This document shows positions 51,381 to 61,509 of a DNA stretch of 64,000 nucleotides, piece after piece. The notes under the pieces are model-generated. The model made no database searches. It had not been told where the DNA came from and saw only the letters and a program-made list of their open reading frames with translations. Position 1 is the stretch's first letter; each line of letters starts with the position of its first letter. This stretch comes from Escherichia phage ES17. The stretch is taken from the sequence record NC_070984.1, one strand, 5' to 3'. A program made the position numbers and the translations under genes.

Positions 51381-51523
51381 GAGGAGAGAAGAGGGCTTAT
51401 TTAGCTACCTTTTTCTGTCCGTTTACAAACCAGATAATTGAACCGTCAGGCTGGCGTTGACCGAAGCCTTTCTGGTTGATCATATCATCATAAGAATATG
51501 CTTTTGTTTTCACTTACTTACCC

Positions 51524-51775
51524 TTACATCGGAGTTAAGATGATCTCTGCTTTGGCAAACTTCTCGCCAACTTCAAGAGTGTCAGAAACAGGACGAGGTT
51601 CGCCTGTACCTAAATTAACTGCTCTGCGATATCCACCAGATAGAGGCATCATCAAATAAATGACCTGACTGTCATCATCTTTTAAAGTAAAGATGTCAGC
51701 GGTTGACAGATCTTTAACAAAGAGTTTCTTTTTTTCTTTGTTGTGAACCTTAATATGTATCGTGCTCATTCTCAC
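51524..51775 (-). CDS. Small-protein paralog family member 1
   Basis: 83 aa; family pattern MK...L..L..G.VF...[YW][IL]K...VNL..G. Confidence 0.45.
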   Translation of the reverse strand: MRMSTIHIKVHNKEKKKLFVKDLSTADIFTLKDDDSQVIYLMMPLSGGYRRAVNLGTGEPRPVSDTLEVGEKFAKAEIILTPM

Positions 51776-52017
51776 TCCTGAACCACAGACATACGAATCA
51801 TTTCTACCTGATCATCAAGACCTTTAACAGATAGTACACCTGTGGATAGATTCACTACAGGAACCCAGCCACTGGCTATACGGATGTTACCAGAAGCATT
51901 TTCAACCCTCATATAATACTGAGGAGAGGCACTTCCGTGCTGAACCATGAAGGGGTTTCCGGGAATGATTGTTTCCAATCGAACCGTATTATCCTTTTTC
52001 TTTGGGATGATTTTCAT
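51772..52017 (-). CDS. Small-protein paralog family member 2
   Basis: 81 aa; MKIIPKKKDNTVRLETIIPGNPF...VVNLSTG. Confidence 0.45.
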   Translation of the reverse strand: MKIIPKKKDNTVRLETIIPGNPFMVQHGSASPQYYMRVENASGNIRIASGWVPVVNLSTGVLSVKGLDDQVEMIRMSVVQE

Positions 52018-52265
52018 TATGTATTATCCACCAAAAGTTCTGCCGACACAGGAATAACTCGACAATAAATAGAAGGTGCTGTTACATTGCCATCAGACAG
52101 ACGAAGAGTGATTGATCTGTCAGAGTTGATAGTAACGTTTGGACTTGCAGACACAGACCCTTTGACATACAGGGTTGCATTGTCAGGAAACTTAAACACA
52201 GCTCCGCTGGGAAGTGAGTTGAGGTCAACTGTAGTCACTTCTTCTTTCTTGTGAGTAATCTTCAT
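52017..52265 (-). CDS. Small-protein paralog family member 3
   Basis: Start at internal MKITHKKEEVTTVDLNSLPSGAVF; track N-terminal extension overlaps next gene. Confidence 0.45.
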   Translation of the reverse strand: MKITHKKEEVTTVDLNSLPSGAVFKFPDNATLYVKGSVSASPNVTINSDRSITLRLSDGNVTAPSIYCRVIPVSAELLVDNT

Positions 52266-52266
52266 A

Positions 52267-52497
52267 TTATTTACCCTGAATAATAAGTTTAGATTCGAAC
52301 AGATCAACAGTATTGGACAAAGGGACAGGAAAGAAAATATCTTTAGGGTTCCGAACACACATTGCAGAATGCTCCCCTGTTTTTATCCAGAATTTAGGGA
52401 CTACATCGTCACCAGTAAAACGAAAAACATCTCCATTCTCCAAGTCAGAGAAAGTCTTGGAGGGTGTTTTGCTTTTTGGTACTAGCTCAAAATTCAT
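52267..52497 (-). CDS. Small-protein paralog family member 4
   Basis: 76 aa; FSDLENGDVFRF...KFWIKTGEH. Confidence 0.45.
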   Translation of the reverse strand: MNFELVPKSKTPSKTFSDLENGDVFRFTGDDVVPKFWIKTGEHSAMCVRNPKDIFFPVPLSNTVDLFESKLIIQGK

Positions 52498-52505
52498 CTT
52501 GATTC

Positions 52506-52817
52506 CTATTTAAGTTTGAGGCTAATGTTAAGGTGCATACATGCTCTGTTCTGTACAGCAGCATAACTTCTACCGAGCATGTCAGCCATTCTCTGAATAG
52601 ACATGAACCCAGCATTACGGATAAGGAACTGGTCCTCTTCTTCAGACCATTTAACTCGGATTGAAGCTCTTGATATGCCGAATTTAGTGCAAGCTGTGTT
52701 AACAGCATTCTCCGTTACATTCATAATCTGAGCTACTTCTTGAACCGAGTACTCTTTGATTAGTCTCCGAAGATTTTCAATCTGCATCGGAGTCCATATA
52801 GTTCTTCGTGCTTTCAT
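52506..52817 (-). CDS. Tandem helix-turn-helix DNA-binding protein (putative early regulator)
   Basis: Two repeats W-x-E-x-L...S.QE.A.....AV: WTPMQIENLRRLIKEYSVQEVAQIM and WSEEEDQFLIRNAGFMSIQRMADML. Confidence 0.4.
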   Translation of the reverse strand: MKARRTIWTPMQIENLRRLIKEYSVQEVAQIMNVTENAVNTACTKFGISRASIRVKWSEEEDQFLIRNAGFMSIQRMADMLGRSYAAVQNRACMHLNISLKLK

Positions 52818-53299
52818 ACATCCTCCAATTAATTGTTAAAACTATCAGGGGAGAACACTAGCTCTGGGCCACGCTGTAGATATCGGCCTACCTTCCACAG
52901 CTAATCAGCTAATATACTCCCCTAATAGTTTATGAATAGGGGGAGGGGACGAATCCTCCCTTATCCTATTAGTTAATATTGCATGTAAGATCTAACAATC
53001 GGTTGCCTTTGTAGGAATAAGCGTAAAGCCAATCCAGCACTAAACTCCCGCCCCCTTAGTGGGCTGGGTTATTAAAGGGTAACGCCCTTATGGGCTAGTT
53101 ACATGAATGTTAGTTTGATAGGAGATCTGAAGTCCTATCTCAAAGGACTCTCGTAAGAATCCTTCACGATATTACTTATTCATCTCTCGTCGGCTATCTC
53201 TCCAAGCCAACCAAGTGTAGGTTTTCAGTTCTTCAAAGTCTTCTGGAGAGAATAGATACTCTTTGAAGGTATCACCAAACCACTTTAAAAATTCTTTAG

Positions 53300-53560
53300 T
53301 CATGAGTCCTCATACTTTTTGTTAGGAAGGATGAAATCCCAAAGAGCAGCCCATACTGCGAGAGATATAAACAGTACAGCAATGATAGGCCATAGGAAAA
53401 CCATGGCTGCTATCTTTGCAAGGTCTGCTTCACCCCTCCAGTTTCTAAAGCATTCATCACCTTTAACATCTATAACCTTAATAAGTACTCCTGATAACAC
53501 CATACCTATCAGGTAGGTTATTAACATACTAACAAGACTGATCACAAGGCTGATCTCCAC
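53300..53560 (-). CDS. Two-TM small membrane protein
   Basis: 86 aa; ISLVISLVSMLITYLIGMVLSGVLI and LWPIIAVLFISLAVWAALW. Confidence 0.4.
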   Translation of the reverse strand: MEISLVISLVSMLITYLIGMVLSGVLIKVIDVKGDECFRNWRGEADLAKIAAMVFLWPIIAVLFISLAVWAALWDFILPNKKYEDS

Positions 53561-53702
53561 ATGTTTTACAGATCACTGGTGAGTAACTACAGGCAGGATA
53601 TACTGACACCCCATCAAACGTCTCACATCCACAATCAGGACATGTACCGTTGGATTCCATGTCATCATCGTCATCTACTTCACCGCCACCAAAACAACTC
53701 AT
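53529..53702 (-). CDS. Cys-rich zinc-ribbon mini-protein (57 aa), not in ORF track
   Basis: MSCFGGGEVDDDDDMESNGTCPDCGCETFDG...CKTCGDQPCDQSC. Confidence 0.35.
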   Translation of the reverse strand: MSCFGGGEVDDDDDMESNGTCPDCGCETFDGVSVYPACSYSPVICKTCGDQPCDQSC

Positions 53703-53711
53703 ACAGACTCC

Positions 53712-53933
53712 CTAATAAACTAAACCTACAGCCTTTGCATCAGGTTGAGGGACTACCTTTGCGCTAGGGCGATAACCATCCACTGAACCGTTCCAAAGAT
53801 TGACACAGGTGATATATCCATCGTCTATGATGTCTGTTTTAATCCAGAAGTGTTTATCATGACCAAAAATACTTCCGTTTGGCAGCGTGGACAGCTCAAC
53901 GGTTTTAAGGGACTGCTTAGAGTCTAGTTTCAT
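53712..53933 (-). CDS. Small-protein paralog family member 5
   Basis: 73 aa; LSTLPNGSIFGHDKHFWIKTD...CVNLWNG. Confidence 0.45.
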   Translation of the reverse strand: MKLDSKQSLKTVELSTLPNGSIFGHDKHFWIKTDIIDDGYITCVNLWNGSVDGYRPSAKVVPQPDAKAVGLVY

Positions 53934-53940
53934 AATAACC

Positions 53941-54189
53941 TCAATTATCGTAGCATGTATTCCAATACATGTAGTTAACGTACGTTCTCGGTTTGATTCC
54001 GTACATGATGAAGTGAGTCTTCTTAATCCTTTCCTTCAGCGTGTAATAAAGGCCATCACTGAAGTTACCAATCTTTACTTGGAAGCGTAAGGAGCGAGCA
54101 TCCATTCGAAGCATAGAGATTAACTGTACTCTACTACCCCCAGCCATCTCTTCAAGAAGCTTCTTTGTATTCCAATAATGAGCTGCCAT
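53941..54189 (-). CDS. Hypothetical protein
   Basis: 82 aa track ORF. Confidence 0.3.
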   Translation of the reverse strand: MAAHYWNTKKLLEEMAGGSRVQLISMLRMDARSLRFQVKIGNFSDGLYYTLKERIKKTHFIMYGIKPRTYVNYMYWNTCYDN

Positions 54190-54190
54190 A

Positions 54191-54472
54191 TTACCACTCC
54201 TTACCGGTTGTTGTTACAGAGCCACCACACCACTGCGCATCGGATAAGGTTTTAGTCTCCTCATCTACTGCTGCACCATTCAGACATGAGATACCATTGT
54301 AACGCATATCAATTTCACCAGAAGGAACCTTCTCACCTTTATGCCAGCGAGAAACACAAACACCTTCCACTGCTACTGCACACCATCCATCAGGACGGCT
54401 CTGTACGCAGCCTGTAAGGGCCACACAGACAAGGAAGATACAGATTAAGGATATTACACCACCCCAACTCAT
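54191..54472 (-). CDS. Cys-rich lipoprotein (candidate superinfection-exclusion / receptor-blocking protein)
   Basis: Signal peptide with lipobox ALTGC, five further Cys in 70-aa mature part. Confidence 0.5.
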   Translation of the reverse strand: MSWGGVISLICIFLVCVALTGCVQSRPDGWCAVAVEGVCVSRWHKGEKVPSGEIDMRYNGISCLNGAAVDEETKTLSDAQWCGGSVTTTGKEW

Positions 54473-54491
54473 GGCTACCTCCTATTTGATT

Positions 54492-54568
54492 TGGCGCACC
54501 CTACAGGATTCGAACCTGTAACCGACGGATTAGAAATCCGATGTTCTGTCCAATTGAACTAAGGGCGC
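54492..54568 (-). tRNA. tRNA-Arg(UCU): tRNA-Arg (anticodon UCU), CCA encoded
   Basis: Manual cloverleaf: acceptor GCGCCCU/AGGGUGC (one G-U), D stem GUUC/GAAC, anticodon loop UUUCUAA, T arm ACAGG-UUCGAAU-CCUGU, discriminator G + CCA. Confidence 0.85.
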
Positions 54569-54748
54569 GGAATTATTTAGATCATATCTCGCTTGGTGAT
54601 ATGACCACATGTTTTGCACTGCATGATATAGCGTACACCTTTATGTTTCGTACCACCATAATCATCAGTGATCTTTAGTGTATACTTCTCAAGAATTACC
54701 CAATCATGCAGATGGAATAGACGTTTAAACCACTTGAACATAATAACC

Positions 54749-55000
54749 TCAAGCGCAAGCAGGGAGAGTGATGATTTTATACTTGCCTTCAAACTCTCCA
54801 AATAAACCCAAGAATGTAGGACTGTAAGTACCAGTACAAACAAACTCATCAAACAATGCGTTATAACTAGGCTTGATCTTCCAAGCCCATACATAACCCA
54901 TCTTGTCAATTGCAATGTAACGAGTGTTCAGAGGAACAGTCATCATTATACCATCAACTTCGATCACTTTAGTGATTGGTGCAGCTTGGAAGTTTTTCAT
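54749..55000 (-). CDS. Hypothetical protein
   Basis: 83 aa; ATG overlaps stop of upstream mini-gene (ATGA). Confidence 0.35.
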   Translation of the reverse strand: MKNFQAAPITKVIEVDGIMMTVPLNTRYIAIDKMGYVWAWKIKPSYNALFDEFVCTGTYSPTFLGLFGEFEGKYKIITLPACA

Positions 55001-55173
55001 ACTTTACCTTTGATAAAAATGTCATTACCACAGACACAGCATGAACGAACAACAGTAGCGCCACGCTGAACGATACGGACCTCTTCCTTAACCAGATTAA
55101 CACGAGCACCACAGCAAGGAGAGTTGACATAAGAGTAACCAGCTTGTGTATTCTTGATTGTTTGCTTAGACAT
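54997..55173 (-). CDS. Cys-rich mini-protein (58 aa), not in ORF track
   Basis: MSKQTIKNTQAGYSYVNSPCCGARVN...SCCVCGND. Confidence 0.35.
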   Translation of the reverse strand: MSKQTIKNTQAGYSYVNSPCCGARVNLVKEEVRIVQRGATVVRSCCVCGNDIFIKGKV

Positions 55174-55272
55174 TTGAGCTTCCTCTTGTTAGTTTAGGTA
55201 AACCACCCCAATCACTGCTGCACTCATTCATGTGGAATGCAGATGGGAAAAGTAATTAAAGGTGATTTACCT

Positions 55273-55301
55273 AAAACAACAAAGGCCACCCGAAGGCAGC
55301 C
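55273..55301 (-). terminator. Intrinsic terminator (UUCG-type hairpin)
   Basis: Minus-sense GGCUGCC-UUCG-GGUGGCC (G-U pairs) + UUUGUUGUUUU. Confidence 0.6.
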
Positions 55302-55310
55302 TTTTATTTA

Positions 55311-55451
55311 TTAACTGTTATACGTCCAACCACCTTGCTTGTTACGGATGGCTGACATTGCATGAATCCAAAAGCCTTCCAGTTTCAGAGCACCATTAGC
55401 TACTGCATCCATACGTTCAGGGCGGTTCATACGTTTGGTTGATACTTTCAT
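55311..55451 (-). CDS. Small basic protein (46 aa), not in ORF track
   Basis: MKVSTKRMNRPERMDAVANGALKLEGFWIHAMSAIRNKQGGWTYNS. Confidence 0.3.
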   Translation of the reverse strand: MKVSTKRMNRPERMDAVANGALKLEGFWIHAMSAIRNKQGGWTYNS

Positions 55452-55696
55452 ACCTATCTCTCTTTGTTAGTGGAGGCATTATTGCCAGTTGATATAAGGG
55501 ATAGCCCTAGTCAGTAGACTAATCCTGACCGCGTACTCATTGCCGACCTTCTCTGCCTAAGAGTTCAGGTTCTAGAGCTATCTCTTATTCCAACTGGTGA
55601 AGACTCCCTACCCCTAGGAAGTCTCCTGAATCCCAAACTAATACGTACCCCTACATATCAGAAAGTCTTTCGAAAATTAACAGGTTTTAGTCTAGC

Positions 55697-55806
55697 ACCG
55701 GATGTTCGAGCAAGCTCTCCCTAGCGGTGTGGCATATGCCTGAATTAATAAGTTAATGAGGAACACCCTCACATAGCCCTCTGATAAACACAAGGGCTAT
55801 AAGTCG
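55697..55806. repeat. Conserved intergenic element, copy 2
   Basis: See copy 1 at 50716-50833; includes inverted repeat ATAGCCC ... GGGCTAT. Confidence 0.6.
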
Positions 55807-55809
55807 ATG

Positions 55810-56028
55810 TTACTTTTGAGTCAAACACAGATCGGGACGTGGCATAACAGTGGTTGATAGACCGAAGACTTCAACATAACCGCTGCTCAAGTTAGCAGCC
55901 TTACGCAAACCGTCAGAGGTCTTATCTTCTAGCATCAGCCAGAAACGTTTATCGTAAGAGAAAACATCACCGCCCTTAACATCTTCTGCATTTGCATATT
56001 TAGGATAATCAACTACTTTAATTTCCAT
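55810..56028 (-). CDS. Small-protein paralog family member 6
   Basis: 72 aa; AEDVKGGDVFSYDKRFWLMLED...AANLSSG. Confidence 0.45.
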   Translation of the reverse strand: MEIKVVDYPKYANAEDVKGGDVFSYDKRFWLMLEDKTSDGLRKAANLSSGYVEVFGLSTTVMPRPDLCLTQK

Positions 56029-56286
56029 TCACTTACCTTTATTAGTAATTACTGCATCTGGGATAAGGATTACAGGAAGATTTGAATTAAGCTTCATAAC
56101 CTGATTAGTTCTTAAACCAAGCACAACTGTTCCAGAATCTTTCCTGTTCGACTCGGTTACGTGTGGAGTGAATAAACTAACAACCAAATAGTGATCGACG
56201 CATGTAGATTTAACTTGGAATACATCTCCAAGCTTTAAATCACCCACTGTAAGATCTGGGTCTTTCATCTCAAGATCAATCTTCAT
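56029..56286 (-). CDS. Small-protein paralog family member 7
   Basis: 85 aa; VGDLKLGDVFQVKS...VVLGLRTNQV. Confidence 0.4.
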   Translation of the reverse strand: MKIDLEMKDPDLTVGDLKLGDVFQVKSTCVDHYLVVSLFTPHVTESNRKDSGTVVLGLRTNQVMKLNSNLPVILIPDAVITNKGK

Positions 56287-56512
56287 CTTTAGCCTCTATG
56301 TTGGTTATGTGAAGATCACTACGTACTTGGCAGACTTCATCCCGTTTAAAAGGCATGAGCTTTCCAGTTACCACATCAACACAGTTGACATAATTGTCTG
56401 CGTACAATGTGTCGGTTCTGATGTAAAGGGATTCTTTACGCTCAAACAGAACCCCCGGCTTCATGTTATTTAAGCGAAGCATTGTACGATCGGATTTAAT
56501 ATTAACTTTCAT
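56276..56512 (-). CDS. Small-protein paralog family member 8
   Basis: 78 aa; LNNMKPGVLFERKESLYIRTD...CVDVVTG. Confidence 0.45.
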   Translation of the reverse strand: MKVNIKSDRTMLRLNNMKPGVLFERKESLYIRTDTLYADNYVNCVDVVTGKLMPFKRDEVCQVRSDLHITNIEAKDED

Positions 56513-56514
56513 CT

Positions 56515-56772
56515 TTAATCCACCTTATTGGTAAGTCGAGCATTATCAACTACCTGAACAACAGTATCTTTTCTCAACATTGTTATTCTATCCGAAGTGA
56601 GATCTACTACTACTCTTTCGTCAGGCTTCCAACTAGCTGAATAAACGGTTGAGGAATCTAGCTTTACTGTAAGATATATTTTATTTTTAGGTGGAACAGT
56701 TTCAAAAACACTCCCCACCTTCAGGTCTTTCAGTTGCTTGACTACAGGGGCTGTATTAATATCATGCTTCAT
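56515..56772 (-). CDS. Small-protein paralog family member 9
   Basis: Start at internal MKHDINTAPVVKQLKDLKVGSVFETV. Confidence 0.4.
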   Translation of the reverse strand: MKHDINTAPVVKQLKDLKVGSVFETVPPKNKIYLTVKLDSSTVYSASWKPDERVVVDLTSDRITMLRKDTVVQVVDNARLTNKVD

Positions 56773-57058
56773 TGTTAATCTCCTGCTGTTTAGCAATAGC
56801 CACTCGCAAGTCTTCATTAGCACGAGCAAGGCGTAACACTTCGTGGTTGAGGTTCTGAAGACGCTTGTTTCTGTCCTCTACTTGCATAATAAGATCGTTA
56901 AGTGTTACTTTAACTTTCTCATTATACATCTCATCCACTCGAACTAGGGATTTATACATTCTTTCCCAGCTTGCTGCTTTGTTTCTGAGAACAATAAATC
57001 CTAGAACACTGATAGTTAAACAGCTTACAAAAAGGAATTTATATACTTCTAAAGTCAT
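56762..57058 (-). CDS. Type II membrane protein with coiled coil
   Basis: N-terminal TM FLFVSCLTISVLGFIVL then heptad-rich helix. Confidence 0.4.
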   Translation of the reverse strand: MTLEVYKFLFVSCLTISVLGFIVLRNKAASWERMYKSLVRVDEMYNEKVKVTLNDLIMQVEDRNKRLQNLNHEVLRLARANEDLRVAIAKQQEINNEA

Positions 57059-57257
57059 ATTATTTACCCTTTATCAGAGATTAAAAGTAATATTATTTAA
57101 GTAAGTTATATTTAGTAAACTTATTTTCTAAGAAATTTTCAAAGGGTCTATATACAGAGCATTACCCATAGTCCCAGAATACTACCATCTTTTTCAATAA
57201 ATTTACTAAGTGGTTGGTTTATAAAGGAATTTAGTTTGTCAAATCTGGCACTAGTGA

Positions 57258-60880: not shown

Positions 60881-60890
60881 TTAAAGAGCG
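60881..60890 (-). promoter_or_regulatory. boxA-like element A (transcript CCGCUCUUUAAUAAUUUA)
   Basis: Matches rrn boxA UGCUCUUUAACAAUUUA at 15/17; preceded in transcript by hairpin AGUGUG-AGAAAG-CACACU. Confidence 0.55.
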
Positions 60891-60980
60891 GTAAATCTAT
60901 CAGTGTGCTTTCTCACACTATGCAACTGTTAGCCGTTGTTACGCTTTTCACTGAAGCGATGATTTGCTTAGTGAGTGCTC

Positions 60981-61009
60981 ATTATGAATCATGTTGTTTT
61001 CGCTGTCAA
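60981..61009 (-). promoter_or_regulatory. Sigma70-like early promoter P2
   Basis: Minus-sense TTGACA - 17 nt - CATAAT. Confidence 0.55.
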
Positions 61010-61114
61010 CCGCTTTTTAATCTTTTTTCGTCGTTCCCGCTATTGGGAGGATATATCAATCAGCTTTGTTTGATTGAAGATTAAGCGGTGAGGCTTAACT
61101 TATGATTCATATTG

Positions 61115-61124
61115 TTAAAGAGCG
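61115..61124 (-). promoter_or_regulatory. boxA-like element B (transcript CGCUCUUUAACAAU)
   Basis: 13-nt identity with rrn boxA core GCTCTTTAACAAT. Confidence 0.55.
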
Positions 61125-61391
61125 TTTTTAGCCTTTTATAGTGTCTGCTAATCACTGCATCATTGAAGGCTTACTGATTCATTAACAGGACGCCTAACCC
61201 TGAACTACTCGCTGCACTATGTGCCACCTTTCCCGCGATACGTTGATTTGGGAACTTGTTAGCGGTGTATCTGCTAACTTGTGGTTAGTATGGACTACTT
61301 TAACCACGTTTGCAACTCTTTTTATCATCTTCTTTTAATTCCTTTCCCTTATCTCGCGTGAATCTATGCGAAAGGGCAAGATGATAAGTTT

Positions 61392-61401
61392 TTAAAGAGC
61401 G
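61392..61401 (-). promoter_or_regulatory. boxA-like element C (transcript CCGCUCUUUAAAAACUUAUCA)
   Basis: About 30 nt downstream of P1; preceded by GUCA-GCGA-UGAC hairpin. Confidence 0.5.
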
Positions 61402-61431
61402 GGATTTTTTAAGTCATCGCTGACTATGCTC

Positions 61432-61460
61432 ACTATATGTCAGGCTGTTTTCGGTGTCAA
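61432..61460 (-). promoter_or_regulatory. Sigma70-like early promoter P1
   Basis: Minus-sense TTGACA - 17 nt - TATAGT. Confidence 0.6.
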
Positions 61461-61499
61461 TACTCTTTTTGAGAATATTTTCACTTTCTAGCCTGATTT

Positions 61500-61509
61500 T
61501 TAAAGAGCG
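61500..61509 (-). promoter_or_regulatory. boxA-like element D (transcript CCGCUCUUUAAAAAUCAG)
   Basis: Immediately preceded by boxB-like hairpin GGCAA-GAAA-UUGCC; about 45 nt downstream of P3. Confidence 0.55.

Follow-up and report, generated by a model that had tools for sequence, protein, structure and literature searches.

Phage early regions mostly hold unrelated ORFans, not one expanded scaffold. Tandem runs of diverged paralogs in early variable regions, with a copy number that varies between close relatives, are familiar from the terminal-repeat 'Tre' genes of Staphylococcus Twort-like phages and from the multigene families of poxviruses and African swine fever virus (ASFV), the proteins of which are unrelated to those described here. 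In phiEco32-like phages the early gene cluster makes up the early expression class; promoters close to the right end drive its leftward transcription by the sigma70 RNA polymerase of the host (PMC8948821, PMC9965538, PMC4281155). The Gordonclarkvirinae, to which phiEco32 belongs, resist restriction-modification and nearly all tested defence systems with no known inhibitor (PMC11990801). For phage LUZ24, 13 early proteins have been expressed in Pseudomonas aeruginosa, and growth was inhibited only by gp4, gp6, gp9 and gp11 (PMC4635203). Here we examined 64,000 nucleotides (nt) of Escherichia phage ES17 (NC_070984.1; this whole stretch is called the window), in which nine small open reading frames (ORFs) of the minus strand form one paralogous family within an early gene cluster of the phiEco32 type. 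No account of paralogy in the phiEco32-like array was found in the literature searched, which did not include the original phiEco32 papers.

An earlier note, made from the letters of the window alone, had pointed to nine minus-strand ORFs as divergent paralogs of a family it did not recognise. All nine were present at the location it gave, at 51524-56772 and with lengths of 72-85 amino acids (aa). The start of its span was correct; the end, 56829, was that of the longest, TTG-initiated form of p9, and came to lie at 56772 when the start codons of p1-p9 were refined by ribosome-binding-site spacing and orthologs. The layout is 4 + 1 + 4, with two tight tandem clusters of four genes and one solitary gene (p5). 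Neighbours within both four-gene clusters abut or overlap, a Shine-Dalgarno-like motif is found 5-12 nt 5′ of each of the nine ORFs, and the genes are spaced closely enough for translational coupling. The scores listed below were obtained with an outside-built hidden Markov model (HMM), to which 116 proteins from other phages and metagenomes and, from the window, p5 contributed.

51524-51769, minus strand: p1, 81 aa, phiEco32 gp95 type; 34 bits, E 3.5e-10
51772-52017, minus strand: p2, 81 aa, phiEco32 gp96 type; 52.5 bits
52017-52265, minus strand: p3, 82 aa, phiEco32 gp97 type; its start is an internal ATG of a longer mechanical ORF
52267-52497, minus strand: p4, 76 aa, phiEco32 gp98 type, divergent; 30 bits, E 7e-9
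53712-53933, minus strand: p5, 73 aa, phiEco32 gp104 type, the most canonical member; 67.8 bits
55810-56028, minus strand: p6, 72 aa, phiEco32 gp113 type; 52 bits
56029-56286, minus strand: p7, 85 aa, phiEco32 gp114 type, with a long insert in the variable hairpin; 34 bits
56276-56512, minus strand: p8, 78 aa, phiEco32 gp115 type, overlapping p7 by 11 nt; 53.9 bits
56515-56772, minus strand: p9, 85 aa, not in phiEco32, 93% identical to Paul gp125; 43.6 bits

Pairwise identity among the nine is just 16-33%, and their relatedness was therefore tested in four ways. When an HMM seeded with p5, p6 and p8 was run against the 382 window ORFs of at least 40 aa (379 without the seeds), the remaining six array members were found to be the six best non-seed matches (E 2e-4 to 0.06; next unrelated ORF, 0.27), and iteration converged on precisely the nine. 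With the outside-built HMM all nine scored 30-68 bits (E 1e-20 to 7e-9 among the same 382 ORFs), while the best non-member of the window reached E 0.28. Composition-preserving shuffles of the nine (n = 1,800) gave at most 9.7 bits. In addition, the nine fall in seven mutually cross-matching PHROG families, each matching its own family at E 1e-29 to 1e-49; outside members matched nearly all of these families, and among 117 of them 113 matched phrog_6570, 29 matched phrog_12612 (the family of p1) and 13 matched phrog_10911 (that of p4). A reading in which composition or chance accounts for the similarity, or in which the ORFs do not represent genes, could draw on the low pairwise identities and on the triviality of an initial 'MK', but it is refuted by the profile searches, the shuffle test and the ratio of nonsynonymous to synonymous substitution rates (dN/dS) of the conserved orthologs, which is well below 1. 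Hundreds of full-length homologs outside the window and the confident structure prediction for p5, both described below, also speak against it, and we give it practically no credence. The similarity goes far beyond composition and, judged on these sequence comparisons, the nine are genuine paralogs of one family, in agreement with the earlier note.

Position F23 of the family signature is present in all nine and G20 in eight of nine; the exception is p1, which has A at this position and TADIF where other members carry GDVF. Six members (p1, p2, p5, p6, p8 and p9) have a clear VNL..G-type motif; in p3 and p7 it is weaker, and p4 lacks it. Alignment to the family profile runs end to end in eight of the nine and over residues 8-45 only in p4, in the C-terminal half of which C-V-R-N-P replaces VNL..G. 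The AlphaFold2 (AF2) model of p4 is all-beta with a predicted local distance difference test score (pLDDT) of 76 and retrieved no family members; the MAFFT alignment used as input had left-justified the p4 C-terminus. With a profile match confined to its N-terminal half, p4 is a divergent member of the family.

The extent of the family was determined by homology searches. A word-indexed homolog search returned Kuravirus orthologs only, and the wider family needed an exhaustive profile search, which covered 1.84 billion representatives and yielded 658 proteins at E <= 1e-3 (representatives at 50% identity). Among the best 150 listed, 148 were newly returned, and 131 of these were of 100 aa or less and matched essentially end to end. 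Nearly all of these were full-length at 68-87 aa; membership was defined by a single domain of about this length that begins the protein (M-K-[IV]) and matches along all of it. Several long repeat proteins of RCC1-like, Big_5 or low-complexity type (P0129, P0188, P0208 and P0226) were rejected as false positives that had entered through a short G-D-V-F-like motif. Pfam-A (2025 copy) was searched with the nine to E <= 1 and with 117 members to E <= 0.01; no match resulted, and neither set matched the KOW, Tudor, Sm or FeoA models. NCBIfam (2026) gave scattered single-member matches only (E >= 0.004), with dedicated anti-defence libraries such as dbAPIS and that of PADLOC outside the search, and a sequence search of the PDB with the nine and family members gave no match. 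PHROGs 6570, 7832, 7431, 8365, 16423, 9955, 12612 and 10911, kept separate in that database, are united here through their cross-hits. By these sequence criteria the proteins form an uncharacterised, unnamed superfamily of about 650 clusters at 50% identity, which takes in at least eight PHROGs of 'unknown function'. Since the family has no Pfam or NCBIfam model, the earlier reader could not have recognised it.

An alignment of 126 sequences was used to define the family signature. It reads M1 K2 I3 ... L17 x x G20 D21 V22 F23 ... Y30 x K32 T33, followed by a variable stretch at 34-44, and then N45 x V47 N48 L49 x T51 G52 ... V63 x P65 ... A68 x L70. In degenerate form, the signature used to judge membership is L-x-x-G-[DE]-[VI]-F ... 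[YWF]-x-[KR]-[TV] ... V-[ND]-L-x-x-G ... V-x-P. Residue F23 is present in 100% of the 126 sequences, G20, V63 and G52 in more than 90%, and L49 and Y30 are also conserved. The length of members varies chiefly ahead of columns 26-27 and at column 39, where insertions reach 12 aa. In terms of the fold described next, the parts that vary in sequence and length are the beta1-beta2 loop and the tip of the beta2-beta3 hairpin, and the signature residues are mostly of types expected in the core and turns.

The AF2 model of p5 is confident and consists of five antiparallel strands closed into an SH3-like small beta-barrel. The same fold is accordingly predicted for the family, each member of which would be a cytoplasmic protein made up of this one domain of about 75 aa. 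The uL2 C-terminal domain, EF-P/eIF5A domain I, KOW and Tudor barrels are alike in fold but without detectable sequence relationship, as are the SH3-like barrels of the DtxR/IdeR SH3-like domain, FeoA, VapX, the UvrD C-terminal domain and the CarD RNA polymerase-interacting domain (RID). The G-K-G of KOW and the aromatic cage of Tudor are missing from the array family, which has its own signature and stands alone. This resemblance at the level of fold carries over no function.

The main rival for the function of the array starts from this fold. According to this explanation, the proteins would, like KOW, Sm or Tudor domains, be small barrels that bind nucleic acids, with RNA or DNA of the phage or the host as their substrate, for example in transcription elongation, translation, or tRNA or RNA repair, with no set of diverse protein targets. 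The closest folds are RNA-binding in nature, and three array members are basic (p1, p2 and p9, pI 9.0-9.3, where pI is the isoelectric point). SprT/Spartan-type proteases use DNA-binding modules, and a 478-aa protein from a Tenacibaculum sp. metagenome-assembled genome (P0124) joins an N-terminal SprT-like metallopeptidase to the barrel repeated five times in tandem, the repeats being strongly basic (Lys/Arg-rich). No other convincing case of the barrel joined to further domains was found, and the fusion may be a hint that the barrel binds nucleic acid in the Tenacibaculum lineage. Nevertheless, the other six array members are neutral or acidic, the family median pI is 5.4 with half of the members below 5.5, and the signature holds no conserved basic patch beyond K32. 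Because pI ranges from 5.2 to 9.3 within the array, the nine have no common electrostatic surface, and this spread argues against a uniform DNA-mimic or nucleic-acid-binding surface. The lack of any sequence match to KOW, Sm or Tudor models also counts against this rival.

The genomic neighbourhood of family members was likewise considered. An RtcB RNA ligase gene lies directly 3′ of members in two unrelated phages, one represented by locus L002 (8001-9444) and the other being Proteus phage Privateer (L012, 15001-16558), a gene for the RNA-repair nucleotidyltransferase RlaP lies within 2 kb of members in another (L016, 214-4061), a tRNA cluster is found near the member of Pseudomonas N4-like phage ZC08, and the ES17 array encloses a tRNA-Arg(TCT). 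These cases would suit a nucleic-acid-directed role, but their number is too small to establish an association, and genes of this kind are in any event frequent in accessory regions. Weighing both sides, we consider a nucleic-acid-directed role unlikely, though it is the rival to be taken most seriously.

Members of the family were also found in other phage groups, amid the early or accessory genes of LUZ24-like, N4-like and 7-11-like phages. Against the outside-built profile, N4 gp21 matched at E 3e-17, Pa223_007 at E 6e-16, ZC08 gp77 at E 2e-15 and gp7 of LUZ24 (Bruynoghevirus, early region) at E 9e-11; N4 gp21 and PaP3 ORF65 were also retrieved as structural matches. These five proteins, from Bruynoghevirus (LUZ24 gp7, Pa223_007 and PaP3 ORF65) and Schitoviridae (N4 gp21 and ZC08 gp77), are uncharacterised proteins of the early or middle class in model podophages and resemble the array members in size, signature and early or accessory placement, but their phages have a single copy, or a single copy and one marginal match, versus nine here. 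Vibrio phage 1.084.O and metagenomic phage contigs carry members as well. Tandem arrays occur in unrelated phage contigs, with six copies in L016, two in L018 and two adjacent strong copies in Privateer, which has three weak matches in addition (E 7e-8 to 2e-3); tandem arrays thus recur independently in unrelated phages. In T4, no clear family member was found in the 149 of 169 kb scanned (100-120 kb was left out). The sole hint of a T4 relative is Ndd.1 (71 aa, MKSFKDVKVGEIFCL..., L024 46102-46317), a marginal match of 14 bits with E 4e-4 among 244 ORFs.

Close relatives of ES17, a phiEco32-like Kuravirus and thus a podophage of E. coli, were compared for gene content and sequence. The region 51400-57100 has 94% identity over 83% of its length to phiEco32 63.4-69.1 kb (Kuravirus, Gordonclarkvirinae), and about 100 related coliphage genomes also match it; it is a mosaic that no phage record in the collection searched matches throughout. 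Profile scans of fetched loci from six genomes gave nine family copies in the ES17 window, nine in phiEco32 (gp109 present, p9 absent), eight in Paul, three in LAMP (68.5 kb genome), 11 in EP335 (Nieuwekanaalvirus) and six in ECBP2 (Suseptimavirus). Clustering at >= 50% identity resolved 19 types in the six genomes, and only the p5, p2 and p1 types are common to all five Kuravirus/Nieuwekanaalvirus genomes, the reduced LAMP included. The phiEco32 genes gp100 and gp109 are not in the ES17 window. Alleles also differ in their closest relative: (i) p1 is 54% identical to phiEco32 gp95 versus 85% to the Paul copy; (ii) p3 is 100% identical to that of phiEco32 versus 61% to that of Paul; (iii) p4 is 100% identical to the phiEco32 copy; and (iv) the regulator gene at 52506-52817 is 96% identical to that of Paul versus 64% to that of phiEco32. 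The alleles are mosaic. Orthologs have dN/dS of about 0.06-0.27 and are under purifying selection. Within the array, DNA repeats were limited to short matches at gene starts and no DNA-level similarity between paralogs was detected; the duplications are therefore old and none is recent. The description of the family as fast-diverging in the earlier note consequently fits its gene content and alleles, which change fast, but not the orthologs, which are constrained, nor the duplications.

These comparisons bear on a second rival, in which the genes would serve the phage's own programme or phage-phage competition and would not be aimed at host defence, for instance in superinfection exclusion, in control of the early-to-middle switch, or as adaptors or chaperones of phage early proteins. 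That the p5, p2 and p1 types are retained throughout the Kuravirus/Nieuwekanaalvirus genomes compared points to a core function for some of the family. The genes next to N4 gp21 carry the annotations superinfection exclusion, membrane protein and lipoprotein, p5 is near lipoprotein and membrane protein genes, and RNA polymerase is a known binding partner of SH3-like barrels such as the UvrD C-terminal domain and CarD. On the other side, direct action at the envelope is excluded by the lack of signal peptides and transmembrane segments in the family; a fixed internal role is difficult to square with genes that are gained and lost so readily and reach up to 11 copies; and no consistent partner gene was found across the phage groups compared. 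We regard this explanation as rather improbable.

The position of the array in the early region, downstream of a cluster of promoters and boxA sites, was another statement of the earlier note that stood up. The array is syntenic with phiEco32 gp95-gp115, and the nine genes lie in the early gene cluster of a phiEco32-like phage, the expression class of which is taken from the literature. Upstream of them on the minus strand are sigma70-like promoters that each match the consensus at 11 of 12 positions, equivalents of which exist in SU10/phiEco32 (PMC4281155), together with boxA-like motifs, of which four fall within 630 nt and seven in the whole window versus 2.8 expected. Terminator-like hairpins lie between the promoters and the array.

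63502-63475, minus strand: sigma70-like promoter
61460-61432, minus strand: sigma70-like promoter
61009-60981, minus strand: sigma70-like promoter
61508, 61400, 61123 and 60889 (60882-61508), minus strand: four boxA-like GCTCTTTA sites
59135, 57807 and 57722: terminator-like hairpins

Because these hairpins separate the promoters from the array, processive antitermination of early transcripts seems to be needed; the same question has been raised for the relative 7-11 (PMC8948821).

Early location and small size are also what would be expected of host-shutoff toxins that each inhibit an essential host process, as in classical takeover, and the neighbouring early ORFans gp4, gp6, gp9 and gp11 of LUZ24 provide precedents (PMC4635203). 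The only family member tested, LUZ24 gp7, was however not among these four inhibitory proteins of the 13 (PMC4635203). At least gp7 is therefore no host-killing factor, a result that argues against a host-killing takeover role and is neutral on anti-defence. Nine to 11 distinct essential targets for one scaffold in a single phage would also be implausible, and a toxin function is thus highly improbable.

Our preferred explanation, held tentatively, is that the array is a set of dispensable, non-toxic early accessory proteins that bind their targets through variable loops carried by a constant scaffold, in the service of host takeover or anti-defence. Nine anciently diverged paralogs would be transcribed leftward in an early operon dependent on host RNA polymerase, and each would be a small non-toxic binder that uses its variable loops to engage a target of its own early in infection, a macromolecule of the host or of host defence. 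Together they would form an exchangeable accessory repertoire for takeover or anti-defence, its diversity kept by gene gain, gene loss and allele swapping between phages. We favour binders because the core is fixed and the loops variable, genes turn over on top of a small core set, and tandem expansion, early expression and non-toxicity go together; a repertoire of accessory type is suggested by the copy number of 3-11, the 19 types with only three shared, the mosaic alleles, the independent tandem arrays, the placement of members elsewhere amid early or accessory genes and the wide pI range within the array. Whereas the identity, paralogy, predicted fold class, early location and evolutionary dynamics of the nine are shown by the results above, their binding role and targets are what we infer. 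The explanation fits the published resistance of the Gordonclarkvirinae (PMC11990801), a fit that is not a demonstration.

Several points weigh against the accessory-binder explanation. The sole experimental datum on the family is a negative toxicity result, that for LUZ24 gp7. The conserved polar residues D21, K32, T33, N45, N48 and T51 could make up one shared functional site rather than a neutral scaffold, and ortholog dN/dS gives no sign of positive selection. In addition, the Gordonclarkvirinae of the BASEL collection are as a group, the 67-69 kb clade included, sensitive only to Fun/Z (PMC11990801), and LAMP, with its genome of 68.5 kb, has just three copies; if the 67-69 kb clade is generally copy-poor, the extra copies would not be needed against the tested systems. 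A bolder version, in which an SH3-like core with hypervariable loops serves as a 'binder scaffold' and each paralog of the tandem repertoire neutralises a different immune system or host factor, is doubtful on present evidence; if true, such a repertoire would explain the resistance of the Gordonclarkvirinae without a known inhibitor or DNA modification.

The genes and other elements interleaved with the array are all on the minus strand, and those named in the earlier note (tRNA, lipoprotein and Cys-rich mini-genes) were each confirmed. Apart from the tRNA, the hairpin and the two non-coding gaps, they are ORFs outside the family.

52506-52817, minus strand: helix-turn-helix regulator
52818-53171, minus strand: conserved non-coding gap1
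53172-53303, minus strand: small ORF
53300-53560, minus strand: small ORF, membrane protein
53529-53702, minus strand: Cys-rich mini-ORF
53941-54189, minus strand: ORF
54191-54472, minus strand: lipobox protein, equal to phiEco32 gp106 'putative phage lipoprotein'
54492-54568, minus strand: tRNA-Arg(TCT), inside the array
54577-54741, minus strand: ORF
54749-55000, minus strand: ORF
54997-55173, minus strand: Cys-rich mini-ORF
55281-55304, minus strand: terminator-like hairpin
55311-55451, minus strand: basic 46-aa ORF, MKVSTKRMNRPERMD..., pI 10.5
55452-55809, minus strand: conserved non-coding gap2

In phiEco32, gp95-gp116 are all annotated as 'hypothetical' except for the lipoprotein, a 'D5-like regulator', tRNA-Arg and a dubious 'DNA helicase' of 98 aa. 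The corresponding coiled-coil/transmembrane protein of 98 aa lies 5′ of p9 (56762-57058, minus strand) and is called 'DNA helicase' in phiEco32, ECBP2 and EP335, a label for which Pfam gave no support (best match E 0.016, below the cut-off). The same name is carried by an 85-aa family member of the p9 type (P0094), and a 77-aa structural match of p5 from phage EcoN5 (BFVD A0A7L4XW47) is named 'Endolysin'. Annotation errors have spread through the phiEco32-like phage group.

The two non-coding gaps are more conserved than the synonymous sites of neighbouring genes, and neither matched Rfam, lax filters included. The first 237 nt of gap1 are 94.5-99% identical in Paul, phiEco32, LAMP and EP335 and 76% identical in ECBP2. 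A block at about 52838-53075 has about 80% identity to ORF-poor sequence beside tRNA genes of G7C-like Gamaleyaviruses (Mimir124, UE-M6, phi G17 and G7C); it holds an invariant TGTTAGATCTTACATGCAA followed by a hairpin, GGGAGGATTCGTCCCCTCCC, with limited covariation. Gap1 may encode a small stable RNA comparable to rnaC/rnaD of T4, or may harbour a regulatory site. Gap2, an ORF-free stretch of 358 nt, has 92-98% identity among Kuravirus and Nieuwekanaalvirus genomes and 83% in Suseptimavirus, and its predicted RNA fold has z = -3.5. Within it, a 67-nt block (about 55508-55574) has about 80% identity to the leader of antiterminator N (gp24) in the P22-like phages BTP1, L and ST64T, where the counterpart lies just 3′ of nutL. 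LAMP and ECBP2 lack a segment of about 80 nt that includes this block, and records of the NJ01, SU7 and O18-011 types align to gap2 as two separate pieces that account for only 77-80% of its length. Gap2 is followed by the conserved basic 46-aa ORF and then by the terminator-like hairpin, which is strong, a layout reminiscent of the nutL-leader-N-tL1 order; gap2 and the 46-aa ORF had no match in Rfam or Pfam. Together with the ORF and hairpin, gap2 could be an antitermination or RNase III-processing module. Both gaps are 100% identical in myPSH2311 (68.7 kb), in which the two gaps and the sequence between them span only about 1.3 kb, versus 3 kb here.

It is above all in the early regions of lytic phages that takeover and anti-defence proteins await discovery, but these regions usually resemble lists of unrelated ORFans. 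The array described here belongs to a large unnamed family in a familiar genomic niche, and its organisation as an array of paralogs is unusual. At least eight PHROG families of 'unknown' function merge into one superfamily that is present in N4, LUZ24 and phiEco32. At minimum, a new family model is warranted and the 'DNA helicase' and 'endolysin' mis-annotations of small proteins are corrected. For experimenters, the array offers a compact target set of nine genes and three core types in a phage group that is genetically accessible (BASEL Bas86-93), and the family is a testable candidate for the unexplained resistance of this group to bacterial immunity.

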